A DNA stretch of 64,000 nucleotides, taken from assembly GCA_965200245.1 (NCBI GenBank), contig CBDATS010000005.1, forward strand, positions 448,001 to 512,000, read 5' to 3'. Shown here piece by piece: positions 5,662 to 62,940 of this stretch. The translations under genes and the position numbers were made by a program. The notes under the pieces were generated by a model. It did no database searches. It was not told the DNA's origin and was given only the letters and a program-made list of their open reading frames with translations. Within the stretch, counting starts at the first letter, position 1, and each line of letters starts with the position of its first letter. Source of the stretch: a bacterium. GTDB lineage: Bacteria > UBA8248.

Positions 5662-6600
5662 TTGCCACCAATACCGATTCGGGAGATTCATCTCGTGGCG
5701 ACAAACATAGAGCGCATCGCACTGACCGCGTGGGCGGGAGCACAAAAAAATCCGCTTGACTTCGCCGGACTTACCGCCTGGCTGAGGGATAGAGGATTCG
5801 AGGTGCAACTCGATCTCGATACGGCCCGGATGGCGGGCGAGCCAACAGGCGCAGCGCGAGAAGAGGTCGTCAAGCAAGCCGATCTGGTCATTGTCTTTGG
5901 TGGCGACGGCTCCATGCTGCGCACTGCGCACAACATCGGCGAGGAATCTCCGCTGTTGTTGGGCATCAACACCGGGCATCTGGGTTTTCTGGCGGATGTG
6001 CCTCAGGCCGAACTCTATCCGGCACTGGAGCGGATACTCGTCAACAAGGAGTTTTCTATCGAATCGCGGATGCGGCTCGGCGCCTCGGTGAACAAAAACG
6101 GAGGCGCACCGCCTGAACTTTCCAATTCACTCAACGACATCGTGCTCACCACCGGCCCCCTGGCCCGCATGGTTGAATACGAAGTGCAGATGGAAGGCCG
6201 CCACCTGGGCTATTTCCGGGCAGACGGTCTCATCGTCGCTACGCCAACGGGCTCCACGGCCTATTCACTCTCTGCAGGCGGACCGCTCGTACTGCCCGAT
6301 CTGAACGTGATCCTCATCAACCCGATATGCCCGCACACGCTCAGCAACCGGCCCATCGTCGTTCCCGCCGAGGCAGTGCTCGAAATCACCATCTTCCCGG
6401 ATACCGAAGCAGAGGGGCGAGAGGTCCTTCTCACGCTCGACGGCTTCCCCGGATGCGAACTCGAAGCGGGCGATTCCGTGAGAATCTTGAAAAGCCGGAC
6501 GCCGGTGCGAATCATCCGGCCCAAGGGGGTGGATTTCTTTCAAACGCTCAGAGAGAAGCTCTCGTGGGAGACGCATCCGCGTGGTGGACGGAAAACCTGA
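5662..6600 (+). CDS. nadK: NAD(+) kinase
   Basis: GGDGS, GHLGFL, ND, DGLIVATPTGSTAYSLSAGGP. Confidence 0.95.
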   Translation: MPPIPIREIHLVATNIERIALTAWAGAQKNPLDFAGLTAWLRDRGFEVQLDLDTARMAGEPTGAAREEVVKQADLVIVFGGDGSMLRTAHNIGEESPLLLGINTGHLGFLADVPQAELYPALERILVNKEFSIESRMRLGASVNKNGGAPPELSNSLNDIVLTTGPLARMVEYEVQMEGRHLGYFRADGLIVATPTGSTAYSLSAGGPLVLPDLNVILINPICPHTLSNRPIVVPAEAVLEITIFPDTEAEGREVLLTLDGFPGCELEAGDSVRILKSRTPVRIIRPKGVDFFQTLREKLSWETHPRGGRKT

Positions 6601-6607
6601 GAAACCG

Positions 6608-8141
6608 ATGCTTCGACTTCTCAGGATCACGAACTTCGCCATCATCGACGACCTGGAAATCGCCTTCGGCCCGGGCCTGAATGTCCTGACGGGAGAGACG
6701 GGTGCGGGAAAATCCATCATTTTCGGCGCCTTGAACCTCGCTCTTGGCTCGCGCGCGGGGGGAGACCTCGTTCGCGCAGGCGCGAGGGAGGCGATCATCG
6801 AATCGCTCTTCGAGATACCCGACACCGAAGGCGGCCTCGCAGCCTGCACCCTGCTCGAAGAGGCGGGCGTGGAGGTCGAAGAGGACGGCGAACTCATCGT
6901 GCGCCGCAGAGTCGCTGAAACGGGCAGAAACCGCATCTATCTGAACGGAGTGCTCGCCACGGCGTCCCTGCTCTCTCAAGTGGGCGAGCGCCTCGTCAAC
7001 ATTCACGGCCAGCACGCACAACAAAGCCTCCTGCGCCCGGCCTCTCACCTGGGACTTCTGGACAATTTCGCAGGGACGAACGGGGAGCGAGAGACGCTCG
7101 GAGAACTCGTGCGCGATTTGAAGACCGCCGAGGAAACGTTAAGCGCACACCGTGAAGGCGTGCGCGAGCGCGCCCAGAGAGCAGATCTCCTCCGCTTTCA
7201 GGTTCAGGAACTGGAAAAGGCCACACTGCGCGCTGGCGAACTCGCGGAAATCGAGGCCGAGCTGCCGAGGCTCAGAAACGCGGGCCGCCTGATGGAAGGC
7301 GCCGCCTCGCTGTATCAGCGGCTCTACGAGGCGGAAGGGTCGGTGGTAGAAAAGACGGGCGAAATTCAGCGTGAGTTGGAGGGCATGGCCACTCTGGATG
7401 AATCGCTGGGTCTCATCCTGGAGGAAGCCGCGTCCGCACAGGCCCAACTCGCAAACCTCGCCGACTCGCTTCGCGATTACACGGAAAGAATCGAACACGA
7501 TCCGGAGCGTCTCGAAGCTCTGGAAGCGAGACGCGCGGTGATACGCGAGATGACCAAAAAATACGGCGACGAGGAGGCGGAATGCCTTGATTTTCTGGAA
7601 AAGTGCCGAAGCAGCCTCACCTCGATTTCGGATGAAGAAGGAAACGAGGCGCGCTACGTGGACACACGCGACGCGCTCAGAACCGACCTCGCAAATTCTG
7701 CCCTCGCACTCTCGGAGAAAAGAACAAGCGCCGCCCAAAATCTAGATGCGCGCATGGAAGAAACGCTGGCCGAACTGGGCCTTGCGGGCGCAAGGTTCGA
7801 GACGCTCATCACGCACTGGGAAGATCCTGAAAGCTTCATCCACATCGGCGGGCGGACGGTGGCCGTTCACTCAAACGGGGTCGACCGCGCACAGTTTCAC
7901 TTCTCGCCCAATCCCGGCGAGCCATCAGGTACTCGTCGTCACCCATCTGCCCCAGGTCGCAAGTCTCGGCGACCGCCACTTCCGAGTGAAAAAACACGTT
8001 GCAGGAGATCGCACGCAGACGCGCGTCGAACTTCTCGGCGATGCCGAACGCGTGGAGGAGATCGCCCGCATGGGAACGGGGATCGAAATCACCGACGCCG
8101 CCCGTGAACACGCGCGTGAGATGCTTGAAAAGGCAGAGTAG
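6608..8141 (+). pseudogene. recN: DNA repair protein RecN with internal deletion and frameshift
   Basis: Walker A TGETGAGKS and IHGQH are present. After FSPNPGEP (about 7923) the sequence jumps, in another frame, to HQVLVVTHLPQVAS...RVEEIARM. The SGGE signature and Walker B are missing. Confidence 0.88.
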
Positions 8142-20775: not shown

Positions 20776-22074
20776 GTGACAGCGCATCTTGAACGCTTCT
20801 TCGGACTGGCGCAGTGCGGCACCAACGTACGAACGGAAATTACGGCGGGCGTGACGACATTCCTGACGATGGCCTACATCGCCTTCGTAAACCCGCAGAT
20901 ACTTTCAAACGCCGGCATGCTGTTCGACGCTGTGTTCGTCGCCACCTGCATCGCTGCGTCACTCAGTACGCTGCTGATGGGACTTTATGCCAACTACCCG
21001 ATTGCGCTGGCGCCAGGCATGGGCCTCAACGCGTTCTTCGCCTTCAGCGTCGTGCTCGGCCTCGGCCACAAATGAGAAGTCGCGCTAGGCGCGGTCTTCG
21101 TTTCCGGGTTGTTGTTCCTGGTGATCAGCATATTGCCGGTGCGACGCTGGATCGTAGAGGCGATACCACAGGGTCTGAAACTGGCCATCGCGGCCGGTAT
21201 CGGCCTGTTCCTGGGCATCATCGCGCTCAAGAACGCCGGCATCATCCAAGGCAGCAAGGCAACACTGGTCACTCTTGGCCACCTGACGACGCCCGGACCA
21301 TTGCTGTGCTTGGTCGGCTTCTGTTTGATCGTGGCGCTCGCCGCGCGCAAGGTGCCGGGCGCCGCGCTCATCGGGATGCTGGCCGTCTCCGTTACAGGCT
21401 TGATTTTCGGTGTCTCGAAATGGAAGGGCATCGCCTCGCTGCCCCCTGATCCCACGCCGACGCTTTTCGCGCTGGACATCGCCGGCGCGCTGCAAGTGAA
21501 CATGCTTGCAGTCATTCTTGCATTCCTGCTCGTCGACTTGTTCGACACCACGGGCACGCTGATTGGCGTGGCACACCAGGCACGACTCCTGGACGACAAA
21601 GGGCGGCTTCCGCACATGCAGCGCGCGCTGATCGCCGATTCGGCGGGAACGGTCGGAGGCGCCCTGCTCGGCACCTCTCCCGTTACGAGCTATATCGAGA
21701 GCGCAGCCGGGGCGGGCGCGGGCGGACGCACGGGTCTGAGCGCAGTCGTCGTGGCCGTATTGTTCCTCACCTGCCTGTTCTTCTCGCCGCTCGCGGGTTC
21801 TATACCACCATACGCGACTGCAGCGGCCATTCTCTACGTGGCCTGTCTGATGGCGCGCCCACTCATGGACCTGGACTGGAACGACGTGACAGAATCGGCC
21901 GCTGCAGTCCTGACCGTCATCGCCATTCCGATGACGTTTTCCATCGCCGACGGCATCGGCATCGGGGTCATCACCTACGTACTGATCAAGATGATGGCGG
22001 GACGCATGGGCGAATGCTCGCCAACGCTGATCGGGGTCGCGCTTCTGTTTGCCATCAAGTTCGCGTGGCTGTGA
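20776..22074 (+). pseudogene. NCS2/AzgA purine permease interrupted by an in-frame TGA at 21073-21075
   Basis: TTFLTMAYI and APGMGLNAFF, then GLGHK*EVALGAVF continuing in frame to DTTGT and YIESAAG. The stop sits at a normally Trp position. Confidence 0.8.
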
Positions 22075-24479: not shown

Positions 24480-25342
24480 TCAGGCGGCCTCGTTTACTGG
24501 CGGAACAGGACTTTCGGGGTCCATGCCGCTCACTGCGATACCATCGAACCGGCGGCACAGGTTGGCCAGACGTATGTCATCGGTCTGGTCCATTTTATTG
24601 AAAACCCGAATGACAGGTGTGCCGACAGGTCCGATCCCGTCCAGGATTTTTTCTACCGAATTCAGGTTGTCCTCACAATGGGGGGATGAGGCATCCACAA
24701 CATGAAGCAGGAGATCCGCTTCGCTCAACTCTTCCAATGTCGCGCGGAACGCCCCTGTCAATTCCCGGGGGAGGTTGTGAATGAAACCGACGGTATCCGT
24801 GATGATGACTTCCTGTTCGCGGGGAAGCCTGAGTCTGCGGCTCGATGTGTCCAGGGTGGCGAAAAGCCGGTCCCCGGCCATGACGTCGCTGTCTGTCAGG
24901 GCGTTGAGCAGTGTGGATTTTCCGGCGTTGGTATAGCCTACCAGGGAAAGAATCGGTACCTGGCGCCACGTGATGGAGCATGGGAACTGCGAGGATGAGG
25001 GAATCGCGGCAATCCTGAACAGGCATTCCGTGTCCATCAGGGAAGCGGTGCAGATGATGACGGGCCCGTTTCATGGCGAGAGCCGGAAACATCTCCAGTG
25101 TGGACGGGTTCTGCTGTCGCTGCAATCTGCGTGTAACGGACCCAGCTTATGTGCCCGGGTTTACGTGGCGGAAGTGTGTGGGCCTGTGAGGGGCGGGGAT
25201 GGGTGCCATGATGCTGTCCCGGGAAAGCAGGGTCCGGAATACCGGAATCCGGTTTACCTCCTGCATGTCCTGAACTGACAAGGACTGGTAACCGAAAACC
25301 CTGCCGGCGAGCCAGGGACATCGATAATCTGATCTTTCCCAA
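24480..25342 (-). pseudogene. hflX: GTPase HflX, degraded (only the G domain is recognisable)
   Basis: LVGYTNAGKSTL, LFATLD, DTVGFI, AFRATLEE, NKMD; the N-terminal region is scrambled. Confidence 0.8.
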
Positions 25343-28333: not shown

Positions 28334-28672
28334 TTCTGGAAACCATGTAGGGTCGAAGCGGGAAAAGGTTCCGTCACTATTCCATTGCAGCTTCCGCTCA
28401 GTTCGTACTCGCTGCGGCTAGCAATGAGGCAGGACCGAAGCGCCAGTCCTCGATCTAGGGATCGGTCACTTTTTTCTTCCAATCAGTTTCCATTCCGAGA
28501 GCGCGGAAAAATGCCGCAGGTCCGCTTTCGCGGAGGAACAGGACAGTGGCGGCGAAACCGACCGCGTACGTGAAATAGAGATCGGTGCCGCATTTTGATA
28601 ATCCAAGGGTATGAAAAGGCAATCCAACTCCAGGCAAGAAACCAAAAATACAGGCGACACCTTGAGACTGAC

Positions 28673-29419
28673 TCATCCCCCCATGACGATGCCACCGTTT
28701 ACATCCAGGCAGACGCCAGTGATGTACTCTGCCTCGTCCGATGCCAGGAAAAGCGCGGCATTTGCCACATCCGAGGGTCTGCCGACACGGCCGAGCGGTA
28801 TCTGTTTCACGATCCCATCGTGGCGGGCGGGGAGCCATCCATCGGTCAGGGGCGTGGCCGTGGGGCCGGGCGCGATGGCGTTCACCGTGACGCCGTAAGG
28901 TCCGAGCGTCCTGGCAAGCGAGCGCGTGAGGCCAATGACGCCGGCTTTCGCCGAGGTGTAGGGGGATGCCGCCCGCAAAACCGCCCGAGCGCCACGCGGA
29001 TGATGAGAGGTTGATGCGACCATAGCGCCTTTCCATCATGGGCTCCGAGACGACGCGGGCGCAGAGGTATTCACCTTTCAGGTTCACGTCGATCACGGCG
29101 TCCCAGTCGTCTTCCGTGTATTCGAGATAACCCTTCTTGGGAGATATACCCGCGTTGTTGACGAGGATGTCGATTTTGCCGAACGCCTTAAGGCAGGATT
29201 CGGCCATCTCCTGAACGGCGGCGGAATCGGAAACGTCGGCCTCAAACGCCAAAACGCCGGGCACACGTACAGATAGCCCCTCCAGGAGGCCCTGGACGGC
29301 GCGGGCTTTTGGTCGCAGACGAGCAATGATGCACCTTCCGCCGCGAAACGCCTGGCCGTGGCCTCACCCAGGCCGCTTCCCGCTCCCGTGATGATGGCTG
29401 CCTTGTCCCTGAGCCGCAT
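28673..29419 (-). pseudogene. SDR/FabG-like oxidoreductase with at least two frameshifts
   Basis: ITGAGSGLG (frame 1), NNAGIS (frame 2), YTSAKAG...NAIAPG (frame 3). Confidence 0.85.
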
Positions 29420-36471: not shown

Positions 36472-36575
36472 ACCGGTCAGGCACCCTCGTGGCACCCGGG
36501 AGTATCCACTGACCGCTGCTTCCTTCCGGACCTGACGGGGTTCGCAGGCTCCCGCCGCACGAGACCCGACCGGCC
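36472..36575 (-). ncRNA. ffs: Signal recognition particle RNA (S domain; may extend to about 36400-36670)
   Basis: Minus strand GCGAACCCCGTCAGGTCCGGAAGGAAGCAGCGGT helix-8 consensus; canonical position upstream of dnaX. Confidence 0.95.
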
Positions 36576-37843: not shown

Positions 37844-38602
37844 ATGAACCCACTGCCCCGTGAAATCTCTCCGGGCGTCTTCTGGCTCGGTGACTGCCTT
37901 GTGCAGCACTCGCAAGGGAAAATCTATCACTCCTACAACGCGGCCTTCCTCGTCATCGGCACTGAGGCATCCATGCTTGTAGAGACGGGACATCCCAAGG
38001 ACTTTCCCATCATCGAGCATCAGATGAGAGATATTCTCTCCAAAGGAGGAGGCCCGCTCAAACACCTGTTCCTTACCCATCAGGAAACCCCCCACTCGGG
38101 CGGTCTAGGCCGCGTTCTCGACAGATACCCCGACCTTACCATCCATGGGGACATGTCCGACTACCATCTGGCGTTCCCCCAACACGAGAACCGTTTCCAA
38201 GAGATGCGCGTCGGGGAGACCATAGACTTGGGAGACTCCCAGTTCATGGCCGTGGAACCCATAATCAGGGACCTGAGAAGTTCTCTGTGGGGTTTTGAAA
38301 CAAAAGGACGCGTCCTGTTCCCCGGAGACGGCTTTGCCTACAGCCACTACCATACGGACGGGCATTGTGGGATGTTTGCCGAGGAGGCCACCTCTCTGGA
38401 TCTGGTCGACGTGCTGGGTGTGTTCGCGGAACGCGCCCTGTTCTGGACCACCTTTACCGATATGAACATATACGCCGACAAACTGGAAGAACTGATGGAA
38501 TATCTGGGTGTCGAAGTAGTCGCGCCGACACACGGCCTTCCCATACGAGACATTGCACGCACGATGCCCAAGGTAAGAGAAGGCCTGATCCGGGGCGACT
38601 GA
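37844..38602 (+). CDS. MBL-fold (FprA/ODP-like) metalloprotein
   Basis: YNAAFLV, THQETPHSGG, LFPGDGF, APTHG. Confidence 0.8.
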   Translation: MNPLPREISPGVFWLGDCLVQHSQGKIYHSYNAAFLVIGTEASMLVETGHPKDFPIIEHQMRDILSKGGGPLKHLFLTHQETPHSGGLGRVLDRYPDLTIHGDMSDYHLAFPQHENRFQEMRVGETIDLGDSQFMAVEPIIRDLRSSLWGFETKGRVLFPGDGFAYSHYHTDGHCGMFAEEATSLDLVDVLGVFAERALFWTTFTDMNIYADKLEELMEYLGVEVVAPTHGLPIRDIARTMPKVREGLIRGD

Positions 38603-39033: not shown

Positions 39034-39254
39034 TTTTGAATTCCTCCCGACTCGGCTCGGCGTCGGGACACTCCCATCGCCGCATCGGCCATTCGATGAT
39101 TTAATGACAATCTGTTTAGCAGGCTTGCTTGAATTCTACAATCAAACCTACCGATTCCAAACACTCGAAACTATACTTGGCGCAGCATATGTCGTATCCT
39201 GCGCGAATCGACGCCATAATCAGCTCTGCTTATCCATATATGAGGAGAACATCC

Positions 39255-39818
39255 ATGCAAGAAGACCCCATCGACGGACACTCCACCTCCATCGTGCCTG
39301 GTGAGCGCGTCATCGACAAGCCGGAACTTCCCCGTGGAGGGCTTTATACCGACAACACCGTCCACACCGAGATGTATGAAGGCTCCCTGCAGTTGAAACG
39401 CGGCACGGCGGGCGATTTCGAGATTTTCTGTGACGAGGGGGCGCACATTGGCGGCACGGCCCAATACCCCACGCCGATGGCCTATCTCGCCATGGCGACG
39501 GGATTCTGACTGCTTACCCAGGTGTCGCGGTACGCGCACATGATGAAAATGCAGATCAAGGGAGCGAGCGTCTCGGTGCGTTTCCGAAAGTTGCTTGGCG
39601 GCTCGGTGCTTAAAGGCACCGTGTTCAACAAGTGGGAGGCTGTGGACACACATCTTAAAATCGAATCAGACGAGCCGGCAGAGAGGCTCGCTCACCTGAT
39701 AAAGAATGCCAAGAATGGATGTTTCGCCGAGAGTTTGATCACCGAGCCGGTGCCACTTCACTCCACCGTGGAGGTGAACGGCGAACCCTTCCAGATAGAG
39801 GGCGTCACGGCGGATTAA
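39255..39818 (+). CDS. OsmC-like protein, putative selenoprotein (Sec85, TGA 39507-39509)
   Basis: PTPMAYLAMATGF-U-LLTQ continues in frame to AKNGCFAE (second Cys). Hairpin GTGTCGCGGTACGCGCAC begins 12 nt after the TGA. RBS GAGGAG. Confidence 0.85.
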
Positions 39819-39840
39819 CCCCCAGAATGGAGTTATTTTG

Positions 39841-40299
39841 ATGGAATACTTCAACGCATCAGATGACATCGCTTTCGGCTCGCAACCCGAACCTGCGGAT
39901 TTGAAGACCCTCGCCGAAAACGGGGTCAAGACCATCATCAACACCCGCTTCCCCGAGGAAGACCAGGGCGACCTCCCGCCCGAGCGTGCCAAAGTCGAAG
40001 CAAAGAAGCTAGGGATGCGCTATGTGAACATCCCTGTTTCGCCGGTCGAGTTCAGTCCAGCCTCACTTGCCGAGGTGAACCGCGCGCTCACGGAAGCGAA
40101 GGCCCACGGGCCCGCGTTCGTACACTGAAAGGCAACGGGGCGGGCCGGGATTTGCTCGCTGAATCATCTGGCGGACGAGAACGACTGGACAGCGCAGGAG
40201 ATGGAGCAGGCGGCCGACGCCACCGGTTTCGACTGGCGCGACGCGCCGCTCGCGCCAAAGTACCGCGAGTTCTTCTCAAGGAGACCCCAAGGGGAGTAA
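39841..40299 (+). CDS. DUF442/Blh-type (PTP-like) sulfurtransferase, putative selenoprotein (Sec96, TGA 40126-40128)
   Basis: SQP, GVKTIINTR, GMRYVNIPV, GPAFVH-U-KATGRA equals the HCx4R active loop. The frame stays open 56 more codons to TAA 40297-40299. Hairpin at 40140-40159. Confidence 0.83.
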
Positions 40300-40488
40300 C
40301 TCTCGCATATCCTCGCATTTGCAGTCATGATCGCGCCTGTAAATTCGTGTCTCCTCACCTTGTTTCCGGCGAGGGGGAAATATGTACCTTCGAACAAAGC
40401 AAATATTGATACTACTTGCCTTGGATATTTGAGGGTTCTATAATCTCTTAACTTTCCAGACTTTCCGGGTGGCCGAGGAGGCGAGTAC

Positions 40489-56986: not shown

Positions 56987-57610
56987 TTACGCACCCTCCA
57001 GCCAAGCTTCCGCATCGGCGCGGACGGCAGCCTCTTCCACACTGTGCTGCAAGACGATGTCCCTGGCGGGCGGGTGGCCGATTTTCGCGTTTCGCCAGCA
57101 ATGGTAGCGAATGGCCGGGGGATAGCCTGTGAGGTCGATGGAGGCGAAAAACGAAGCAGGAACTTCGTCCGGTTTGTATGGATCCATTCGATCTTTTTCG
57201 TAGATGTTGGTCCGCTTCCAGATGCGCCATGCATCTTCCCGTTTTTCGAGCAGGGCCAGAACGCGGCTCCAGGTTGTGAAATCGAGTTCCACTCCGTCGA
57301 TGATTCTTCTCTGGTAGAGGATCAGGTCGTGCTCGGCCACTGCGCGCGGACCACCAAGGCGAACCCAGGGGTTCGTCACGGTGTGCTTCTGGCGCTCGCC
57401 GGGGTGGCGGGCGATCTTCATCTTCTTCGCTGCTTCGACGAATTCATCCCGCGTGCCGCTGAACCACGAAGTGGTAAGCGTGGCGTCTGCGTGATAGCAA
57501 TCGCGCCATTCCTCCCAGAGGCCAGCGTCGCGGGCGTAGTTCACTACCGAGAGAACATCCTTTATCTCGTTCCTCTCGACGCTTTCCTGAATTCTTCCCC
57601 CTGTTTCCAT
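56987..57610 (-). CDS. SnoaL/NTF2-like protein
   Basis: ARDAGLW...CYHADATL..SWFSG, WRI..R..IYEKDR.DP. Confidence 0.8.
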   Translation of the reverse strand: METGGRIQESVERNEIKDVLSVVNYARDAGLWEEWRDCYHADATLTTSWFSGTRDEFVEAAKKMKIARHPGERQKHTVTNPWVRLGGPRAVAEHDLILYQRRIIDGVELDFTTWSRVLALLEKREDAWRIWKRTNIYEKDRMDPYKPDEVPASFFASIDLTGYPPAIRYHCWRNAKIGHPPARDIVLQHSVEEAAVRADAEAWLEGA

Positions 57611-57619
57611 AGTACTTCC

Positions 57620-58036
57620 TCACACGAACTCGTGCACTTCGGCGAACATGCCTTTCACGATGCCCCCGCTCAGGTGGCCAACGAGCACTTCTCCGGGCTG
57701 ATAGGGGCCGCCGCTGAGCGCCAGGTGGAGGTGAATATAGGGTCGGGGTTCTTCCCACGTCTCATCACCTCGGACGGCAGGTGGCTTCTCGGGCCAAGAG
57801 ATGTTACCCACGGCGATGAGTTCGCGCCAGTCATGAAAATAGCGACGTGCCGAAGGGCCGATTACTTCCCGGAATCCCGTACGAATATCCGATTCCTTGA
57901 GCGCACCAAACACGATAAGCGAGGCACTGCGTATGTTCTTCTCTATCACGAAGCGTTCAAACTCCCCAGAAAAATCGTCGTCCTCTTCGAATTCCAGGTG
58001 AAAGACGCGGCCCAGCTTCTTTTCTTCCGCTCGCAT
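57620..58036 (-). CDS. PPC/DUF296 domain protein
   Basis: GRVF.L, GNIS, HLHLAL, VGHL. Confidence 0.8.
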   Translation of the reverse strand: MRAEEKKLGRVFHLEFEEDDDFSGEFERFVIEKNIRSASLIVFGALKESDIRTGFREVIGPSARRYFHDWRELIAVGNISWPEKPPAVRGDETWEEPRPYIHLHLALSGGPYQPGEVLVGHLSGGIVKGMFAEVHEFV

Positions 58037-61988: not shown

Positions 61989-62286
61989 GTCCGGCCCTCT
62001 TGAAGGATGTGGAATTCGTACCGCCCTCACGAAATGCCGCAGGAGAGAAAACCAGATTCCGGGACCCTTCAACCGCCTCACATCTTTTCTATAAATCCTA
62101 TGAATAAACAAAAACTAGCAGGAATCGCCGCTCATGTCATCCCGGAGGGCACGCCTGGCGACTTCTGTTTGAACAGGAGTTTTCGAGAAGAAATCCTGCG
62201 CCCGCGTGAAAGATTGCGCCCGTTCTGGGAAGATGAATAATTCATGAGAAAAATACCGGAACTCGCATTCGATGAGGAATGATTCC

Positions 62287-62940
62287 ATGTCCAGGGTCCC
62301 GTTGCTCGAAAGAGAAAACGCCGGGGGCGAGATTGCGCGCACCTTTGACATCCTGAACAACTTTCAGCGAAGGCAGGTTAACTCCACTCGTGCAACGGCG
62401 CACTCCCCATTTCTGGCGCGTATCTTCTATCCCCTCGTCCAGACCCTCATGCGCGAAGGGCTGGGAACCGTGCTGTCTTCCAAAATCAAGGAGCTCGCCG
62501 TCATCAAGACCAGCCAGATAAACGGGTGCGACTACTGACTCGCCCACAACACCGCTCTCGGCCGGGTGCTGGGAATCACGGATGACCACGTTGCCGCCAT
62601 CGGATCGGATGTGTACATGGATTCGCCGCTCCTCACGCCCAGGGAAAAGTCAGCCGTCCTTTGGGCCGAACATGTGACGCGAAACACCGCCAGGGCCCGG
62701 GACGATGTGGCTGAAGAAGTGCAGAAACATTTCACGGACGCCGAGTTCGTGGAACTCACCTTCGTCATCAGCTACTTCAACATGAGAAACCGCTATCATG
62801 ACTCCTTGAAGTTGCCGAACGACAAGACGGAAATCGTCGAGGACATCAACCGCCTTCGGCCTGATCCGACGAAGCTCAAAAGGTTCTTGCAGGAAATTCT
62901 CGACCACTGGCCGGAAGCTTTCCCCGAACCCAATGAATGA
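62287..62940 (+). CDS. AhpD/carboxymuconolactone decarboxylase family protein, putative selenoprotein (CxxU, Sec84, TGA 62536-62538)
   Basis: KELAVIKTSQINGCDY-U-LAHN..LGR.LGIT continues in frame to the ORF at 62566; candidate SECIS at 62543-62573. Confidence 0.88.

Follow-up and report, generated by a model that had tools for sequence, protein, structure and literature searches.

A predicted two-gene selenoprotein unit pairing an OsmC-related protein with a DUF442/BLH protein in a UBA8248 bacterium

A 64,000-nucleotide stretch of bacterial DNA (GTDB lineage Bacteria; UBA8248; assembly GCA_965200245.1, contig CBDATS010000005.1, positions 448,001 to 512,000 of the forward strand; hereafter the window) carries two adjacent genes that with high probability form one unit, most likely a single transcript, encoding two selenoproteins. 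Gene 1 (39255..39818, plus strand) runs from an ATG at 39255 to a TAA at 39816-39818 and specifies an OsmC-related protein of 187 aa when its in-frame TGA at 39507..39509 (plus strand, residue 85) is read through. Gene 2 (39841..40299, plus strand) runs from an ATG at 39841 to a TAA at 40297-40299 and specifies a DUF442/BLH-type protein of 152 aa when its own TGA at 40126..40128 (plus strand, residue 96) is read through. Each TGA is the sole one in frame before the TAA. The intergenic spacer (39819..39840, plus strand) measures 22 nt and contains a GGAG at 39829-39832, eight bases 5' of the gene-2 ATG. These coordinates confirm the layout proposed in an initial annotation of the window, namely two neighbouring genes 22 nt apart, each interrupted by an in-frame TGA and each continuing to a TAA.

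Conserved UGA codons and the hairpins behind them

Both TGA codons are conserved across species. A scan of one genome per species yielded 42 loci, of which L001-L018 are close relatives of the window and L019-L042 are distant DUF442 loci. The close relatives derive from metagenome-assembled genomes (MAGs) labelled Nitrospinota, Nitrospinaceae or just "bacterium", with at least ten different accession prefixes. The gene-2 TGA occupies the same codon in 18/18 close loci (19/19 sequences with the window), and the gene-1 TGA does so in 15/15 (16/16 with the window). Behind the TGA, all 16 gene-1 sequences remain open in frame for 102 codons, and all 19 gene-2 sequences for 53-59 codons. Variable sites downstream of the TGA are distributed over first, second and third codon positions as 23/15/69 in gene 1 and 15/14/31 in gene 2; this is the same third-position bias as upstream, indicating that the downstream halves are translated and under purifying selection. 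A codon-usage test, trained on 33 family-supported open reading frames (ORFs) of the window and scoring two 45-codon flanks per TGA, identified five TGAs in all 64 kb with coding-like flanks in the same frame, those of gene 1 and gene 2 among them.

Homologs place a Cys at the columns of both TGAs. The gene-1 alignment comprises 11 of 14 matches (P0051, P0052 and P0054 were left out); six full-length homologs read GF-C-LLTQ or GF-C-LMTQ at the column of selenocysteine (Sec) 85, and two more end right behind GF. The OsmC-like structure PDB 3cje places a Cys opposite each of U85 and C156 of gene 1. For gene 2, the best 150 of 1,417 relatives were used; 149 plus the query could be aligned, and 141 including the query cover the active-site loop. 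Among the 140 representatives besides the query, the U96 column holds Cys in 131, Ser in 7 and Asp in 2. The only close full-length relative of gene 2, P0035 (49% identity), reads FVH-C-KAIGRAG. Four of the eight representatives that do not cover the U96 column stop exactly at the preceding His. Among 40 database matches to gene 2, 38 are exactly 95 aa long and were therefore cut at the TGA by gene callers. Three expectations of the initial annotation are thereby upheld: homologs of both read-through proteins carry Cys or TGA at the same column, both families use a Cys there, and standard gene callers fragment such genes, as the 95-aa stubs of gene 2 illustrate.

The conservation of the two codons argues for actual Sec insertion at both UGAs. 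In this process, a Sec-specific elongation factor would bind the hairpin lying 10-12 nt past each UGA and deliver Sec-tRNA. The hairpin of gene 1, resembling a selenocysteine insertion sequence (SECIS), lies at 39522..39539 (plus strand) and consists of 7 bp with one bulge and an apical loop of GUA, with a predicted energy of -8.1 kcal/mol. Its stem begins 12 nt past the TGA, the distance from UGA to loop is 20 nt, and its sequence is invariant in 16/16 sequences, synonymous sites included. The corresponding SECIS-like hairpin of gene 2 (40139..40160, plus strand; 7 bp, apical loop CGGGAUUU, -10.5 kcal/mol) has a stem beginning 10 nt past the TGA and a UGA-to-loop distance of 17 nt. RNAalifold predicts it independently, and all 7 pairs are kept in 19/19 sequences, with a G-U pair changed to A-U in 3. 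The initial annotation had placed a hairpin with a G-containing loop 11-12 nt past each TGA; this position is right for gene 1 (12 nt) and had to be amended for gene 2, where the stem starts at 10 nt.

The consensus bacterial SECIS (bSECIS) of Zhang and Gladyshev, as given in the legend to Fig. 2 of a recent catalogue (PMC13188914), allows loops of 3-9 nt and stems of 4-16 bp, and calls for a G within the first two loop positions, a UGA-to-loop distance of 16-37 nt and an energy of -7.5 kcal/mol or lower. Both hairpins fall within all of these bounds, but the 8-nt loop of gene 2 does not fit the commonest sub-pattern, in which the first and fifth loop bases are paired. Hardly any variation, synonymous changes included, occurs in the 25-40 nt past each TGA. 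Third-position diversity drops to 0.024 over gene-1 codons +1 to +12, compared with 0.247 in the rest of the gene (Mann-Whitney p ~5e-4), and to 0.046 over gene-2 codons +4 to +11, compared with 0.32 elsewhere (Mann-Whitney p ~4e-4). The latter stretch has the lowest diversity of 139 sliding windows.

Several observations weigh against Sec decoding through these hairpins. Their stability is no better than that of shuffled sequences, with z scores of -0.40 and +0.66 for the 60-nt stretches and of -1.08 and -1.95 for the hairpins alone. The stems show no genuine compensatory changes, as the gene-1 hairpin is invariant and gene 2 offers a single one-sided change, so the case for RNA structure rests on sequence constraint. 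That constraint could itself stem partly from amino-acid or codon constraint near the active site. Rfam searches of the window and of 39200-40400 report no SECIS family. Likewise, the 64-kb window contains no selA, selB, selD or tRNA-Sec (no tRNA gene of any kind, and no sel match among 52 ORFs). The sole weak Rfam match, TLS-PK4 on the minus strand (E = 0.98), is dismissed as chance.

If the two TGAs were assembly or sequencing errors or inactivating mutations, the genes would be ordinary Cys enzymes or pseudogenes. The same window does hold such a case. An NCS2/xanthine-uracil permease gene (20776-22074, plus strand; PF00860, 182 bits) carries a TGA at 21073-21075 where 118/118 full-length homologs have Trp, and its closest relatives carry the gene intact; a strong hairpin nonetheless follows the TGA. 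Sec was rejected for this codon on account of the Trp column and the intact relatives, and the TGA is attributed to a nonsense change or a base-calling error. The permease thus serves as the window's own negative control, and the TGAs of genes 1 and 2 behave in the opposite way. They recur at the same codon in 18/18 and 15/15 independent species-level assemblies, the frames behind them are open with variation biased to third positions, and 38/40 gene-2 database entries end at exactly the same length, which together make error or decay extremely improbable. Read-through that does not insert Sec is a further alternative, whether by a reassigned code (Trp or Gly), by near-cognate read-through or by Cys insertion through the Sec machinery, and it would accord with the lack of sel genes and tRNA-Sec in the window and of a SECIS hit in Rfam. 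UGA is nevertheless a working stop codon in these genomes: it terminates 15/35 family-supported ORFs of the window and genuinely ends gene 1 in L008 and L010 as well as gene 2 in L001, L005, L006, L013 and L018. Homologs have neither Trp nor Gly at the column but Cys, a constrained hairpin right behind each UGA is the bacterial signature of Sec, and gene 1 clears the cut-off of an NCBIfam model made for its selenoprotein family. Read-through without Sec is accordingly judged very unlikely. The lineage itself is apparently rich in selenoproteins; Table 2 of the BSepDB paper (PMC13326102) gives 48-54 selenoprotein genes for each of three MAGs labelled Nitrospinota or Nitrospinaceae (GTDB phylum UBA8248), which places them among the richest selenoproteomes.

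The two predicted proteins

Gene 1 matches the NCBIfam model NF041052 (OsmC_like_Se, "OsmC-related (seleno)protein") with 167.2 bits against a cut-off of 95, spanning profile positions 3-144 of 144, and the Pfam OsmC family with 47 bits. The motif around U85 is GF-U-LLT-Q (UxxT), and C156 is the second conserved Cys. By these profile matches, gene 1 is a further member of the known OsmC-related selenoprotein family. U85 is presumably the peroxidatic residue and C156 the resolving residue of an OsmC/Ohr-type protein. Gene 1 would then encode a peroxidase-like redox protein of the OsmC/Ohr type in which Sec takes the first catalytic position and is partnered by Cys156. In the proposed cycle, the Sec85 selenolate would attack an oxidant such as a hydroperoxide, Cys156 would resolve the selenenic acid so formed to a Se-S bond, and an external thiol reductant would reduce this bond again.

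The family of gene 1 has a documented history. In 2005, a paper on the Sargasso Sea metagenome described an OsmC-like UxxT selenoprotein and placed its family in COG1765, 'predicted redox protein' (PMC1088965); Global Ocean Sampling (GOS) data yielded the family again in 2008 (PMC2398784). The family also stands in Table 1 of the 2026 catalogue (PMC13188914). Gene 1 shares the family's UxxT motif, Sec as well as Cys forms exist, and nothing essential differs. What sets gene 1 apart is the labelling of its genomes as Nitrospinota and a DUF442 neighbour that is absent from the family descriptions in the available text of these three sources (PMC1088965; PMC2398784; PMC13188914). Gene 1 therefore cannot be counted as hidden knowledge, as the initial annotation had implied for both genes; the family has been known since 2005 and has its own NCBIfam model.

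Gene 2 matches Pfam PF04273 (BLH_phosphatase, formerly DUF442) with 43.2 bits, above the gathering threshold of 26.1. An AlphaFold2 model built with 54 aligned relatives is confident (predicted local distance difference test, pLDDT, 95.2; predicted template modelling score, pTM, 0.90). Foldseek ranks the DUF442 structures 3gxh and 3gxg (template modelling score, TM, 0.71) and 2f46 (TM 0.75) as its top PDB matches, followed by phosphatases of the protein tyrosine phosphatase (PTP) fold, namely TpbA, Tk-PTP, PFA-DSP and PTPMT1. The active-site loop reads H-U-K-A-T-G-R-A, which is H-C-x4-R with U96 at the nucleophile column. Across the 141 sequences that cover this loop, H95 is conserved in 137, C96 in 132 and R101 in 137. 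The C-x5-R signature of classical PTPs and dual-specificity phosphatases is lacking, as gene 2 and most of its relatives have C-x4-R, and an extra loop residue is confined to a few distant representatives. On profile and model evidence, gene 2 is thus predicted to be a stand-alone DUF442/BLH-type protein of PTP fold with Sec at the nucleophile of the H-C-x4-R loop.

The 152-aa protein has no second domain. It lacks a fused ETHE1-type dioxygenase, and a search for the rhodanese domain PF00581 gives no match at E <= 0.01. In L015, an ORF without a Pfam match (L015:1456-2622) runs in frame from 1456 into the DUF442 gene up to the Sec-TGA, reflecting either an N-terminal fusion or chance. A second Cys, Cys105, is shared without exception by the 19 Sec forms and P0035 and is rare elsewhere (6/141). 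A role as resolving thiol was considered for it and found unsupported, since the column is usually hydrophobic (L, F, M or V) in DUF442 relatives; Cys105 may be a mere buried core residue.

Proposed functions and gene pairing

Gene 2 is read as a sulfane-sulfur transferase with a selenolate nucleophile by analogy with assayed DUF442 domains and with its own fused relatives. The DUF442 domain of Xylella Blh is a measured sulfurtransferase that uses thiosulfate with cyanide or GSH (PMC5823870). The DUF442 domain fused to the Cupriavidus SQR is also a sulfurtransferase, which the C94S substitution inactivates (PMC9163753). The nearest multi-domain relatives of gene 2 (P0060 and P0061) combine DUF442 with rhodanese and GloB/PDO-like metallo-beta-lactamase (MBL) domains. 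Under this proposal, Sec96 would accept sulfane sulfur from a donor such as a polysulfide, a persulfide or thiosulfate, and the Se-S intermediate would hand the sulfur to a thiol or to sulfite.

Gene 2 might instead be a true selenoprotein with another activity. It could be a phosphatase of PTP type, reduce arsenate or another oxyanion, or carry selenium as a Se-Se adduct (e.g. towards selenophosphate synthesis). The PTP fold and the PTP-fold phosphatases that follow DUF442 among its PDB matches speak for such roles. Gene 2 also falls below the cut-offs of NCBIfam TIGR01244 (45 vs 85.85) and NF040641, the bifunctional Blh model (56 vs 625), and its sub-threshold Blh match is confined to the N-terminal domain. 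Selenium handling would be useful in an apparently selenoprotein-rich lineage, and the Cys105 shared by the Sec forms and P0035 could be a resolving thiol. Yet the loop has the C-x4-R spacing of other DUF442 proteins and not C-x5-R, the assayed DUF442 domains are sulfurtransferases, the closest relatives with fused domains have rhodanese and GloB/PDO-like partners, and a Cys at a usually hydrophobic column may lie in the buried core. A function other than sulfur transfer is on balance unlikely for gene 2, if an appreciable possibility.

A bolder scheme would make gene 2 the first P-loop selenoenzyme of PTP fold (H-U-x4-R), acting in a two-selenol relay with the Sec-OsmC protein. In one version, the OsmC selenol would cycle with oxidants, and the DUF442 selenol would ferry sulfane sulfur or selenium (as Se-S or Se-Se adducts) to or from OsmC. 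In the other, the DUF442 selenoprotein would be a selenium carrier feeding the unusually large selenoproteome of the lineage. Either version, if true, would put Sec to a biochemically new use that goes further than speeding up a Cys enzyme; the scheme as a whole is speculative and rather improbable.

The pairing of the two genes bears on whether their proteins act together. Gene 1 lies directly upstream of gene 2 in 15/18 close loci. Ten loci have a gap of 22 nt and two a gap of 23 or 25 nt; it widens to 71-73 nt in L014 and L016 and to 205 nt in L012, and the gap figures give none for L008 and L010, where gene 1 ends in TGA. Of the 15 loci with the pair, 12 have a spacer of 22-25 nt with a ribosome-binding site. 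Neither a terminator-like nor a promoter-like site was found in the spacer at 39819-39840. Co-transcription of gene 1 and gene 2 is the most likely arrangement, and the two proteins may be functionally coupled as the "redox/persulfide module" of the initial annotation.

Alternatively, the genes might be neighbours, perhaps even co-transcribed, that work independently, with peroxide defence standing beside sulfur trafficking and the proteins neither touching nor sharing a pathway. Three of the 18 species (L015, L017 and L018) have gene 2 but no gene 1 nearby, so the coupling is not obligate; in L015 and L017 the genes flanking gene 2 are a transglutaminase-like gene and ilvD. A gene-1 relative within 6 kb is missing from all 24 distant DUF442 loci (L019-L042). 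Given the absence of the pair from these loci and from three of the close ones, the unit is conserved in a single clade and its association is not universal. The 15 paired loci also share upstream synteny (dnaX, orf300, MBL, glyoxalase), and the adjacency could be largely ancestral. Against independence, the pair persists in L016 where the upstream MBL gene and orf300 are absent, the spacing of 22-25 nt is kept in 12 loci, and selenoprotein genes in one operon often act in one pathway, as stated in section 9 of PMC13188914. Independent function is a serious contender, falling a little short of an even chance.

Upstream of the selenoprotein pair, the order dnaX, an unnamed ORF (orf300), an MBL-fold gene and a divergent glyoxalase-family gene is common to L001-L014, and the downstream genes differ. 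The MBL-fold gene (37844-38602, plus strand) is stand-alone and without a flavodoxin domain; it is ~90% conserved and syntenic in 14 related loci. The nearest solved relatives of its product are the di-iron domains of FprA/flavorubredoxin. It was considered as the dioxygenase half of a split Blh and rejected, as its PDB relatives are FprA/flavodiiron proteins and not ETHE1. Between the divergent glyoxalase-family gene and gene 1 lies a region of 221 nt (39034..39254, plus strand), a candidate promoter or operator. An alignment of 11 orthologous intergenic regions reveals several nearly invariant non-coding blocks in it, which may be a promoter or operator. A simple sigma-70 scan of 39034-39254 gave no plus-strand promoter, and no regulator was identified for this region. 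A Shine-Dalgarno-like GAGGAG (39242..39247, plus strand) lies 7 nt before the gene-1 ATG; it is kept in 10/11 aligned loci and altered in L016.

Elsewhere in the window, an AhpD/CMD-family gene (62272-62940, plus strand; Pfam CMD 35.9 bits; NCBIfam ahpD_dom 31.8 vs 27.8) has an in-frame TGA at 62536-62538 within GCDY-U-LAHN (CxxU). The CxxU motif of AhpD-type proteins is a known selenoprotein pattern in the catalogue (PMC13188914), and this gene, probably a third selenoprotein gene of the window, lends indirect support to Sec use in this genome; folding of the 60 nt past its TGA gave no clear hairpin within the SECIS rules. The TGA at 57622 on the minus strand is flanked on both sides by coding-like sequence in the same frame (ORFs at about 57625-58020 and 56987-57618). 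It was rejected as a recoded codon, as it looks like an ordinary stop with the next gene starting in frame behind it. A bacterial small signal recognition particle (SRP) RNA (Rfam RF00169, 74.9 bits) at 36472-36571 on the minus strand adjoins dnaX. Three ORFs match only part of their profiles: 6581-8107 (plus strand) covers RecN positions 1-433 of 563, 24480-25037 (minus strand) HflX positions 187-333 of 351, and 28455-29264 (minus strand) positions 58-148 of about 250 in a short-chain dehydrogenase/reductase (SDR) profile. Their partial matches suggest frameshifts, assembly errors or decayed genes.

Relation to known selenoproteins and significance

The May 2026 catalogue of 119 prokaryotic selenoprotein families and subfamilies contains five rhodanese forms and no entry for PF04273, DUF442, Blh or TIGR01244 (PMC13188914, Table 1). 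A search of full-text literature, covering main articles but neither the supplements of the catalogue's source papers nor the BSepDB website, found no selenoprotein described in DUF442/PF04273/TIGR01244. On this evidence, gene 2 represents an uncatalogued selenoprotein family, and the first with a PTP-like fold relative to that catalogue. It still follows the usual pattern in which Sec replaces a catalytic Cys.

Gene 2 shares its Pfam family, its PTP-like fold and the nucleophile column of H-C-x4-R with known DUF442/BLH domains, for example the N-terminus of Xylella and Agrobacterium Blh and the Cupriavidus SQR fusion. The characterised domains have a Cys codon for the essential residue and are fused to a persulfide dioxygenase or to SQR, whereas gene 2 has UGA and stands alone. 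Gene 2 also forms its own clade among DUF442/BLH proteins, with a single Cys-form relative above ~40% identity. The rhodanese-type selenoproteins (PF00581, NF041203 and NF045694; PMC13188914, Table 1) are likewise of sulfurtransferase type with Sec in place of the catalytic Cys, but they adopt the rhodanese fold and belong to a different family from the PTP-like DUF442 protein.

Operons with more than one selenoprotein gene have precedents. In section 9 of the catalogue, grdA-grdB, prdB-prdC, peroxiredoxin (Prx) with a SelW-like gene, a Prx-like with an AhpD-like gene, SAO and Tso are likewise adjacent and probably co-transcribed, each gene with its own UGA and SECIS (PMC13188914). The combination of OsmC-like and DUF442 genes is absent from the operons listed in that section. 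The initial annotation was not aware of a described OsmC(U)-DUF442(U) operon, and none was found in the full-text literature searched or in the catalogue's operon section.

Selenoprotein genes are routinely mis-annotated, and 38/40 public entries for gene 2 are stubs that lack the catalytic residue. Recognising the Sec form of DUF442 would mend annotation in at least 18 species and would add a family, apparently of a new fold class, to a catalogue of ~119 families. The gain is incremental, in that replacement of Cys by Sec is expected and gene 1 is already known. The gene-2 protein of the window and P0035 nonetheless form a natural Sec/Cys pair for asking what selenium buys a sulfurtransferase, and the tandem of Sec-OsmC and gene 2 would offer a small, testable two-gene system for selenium-based handling of peroxides and reactive sulfur.

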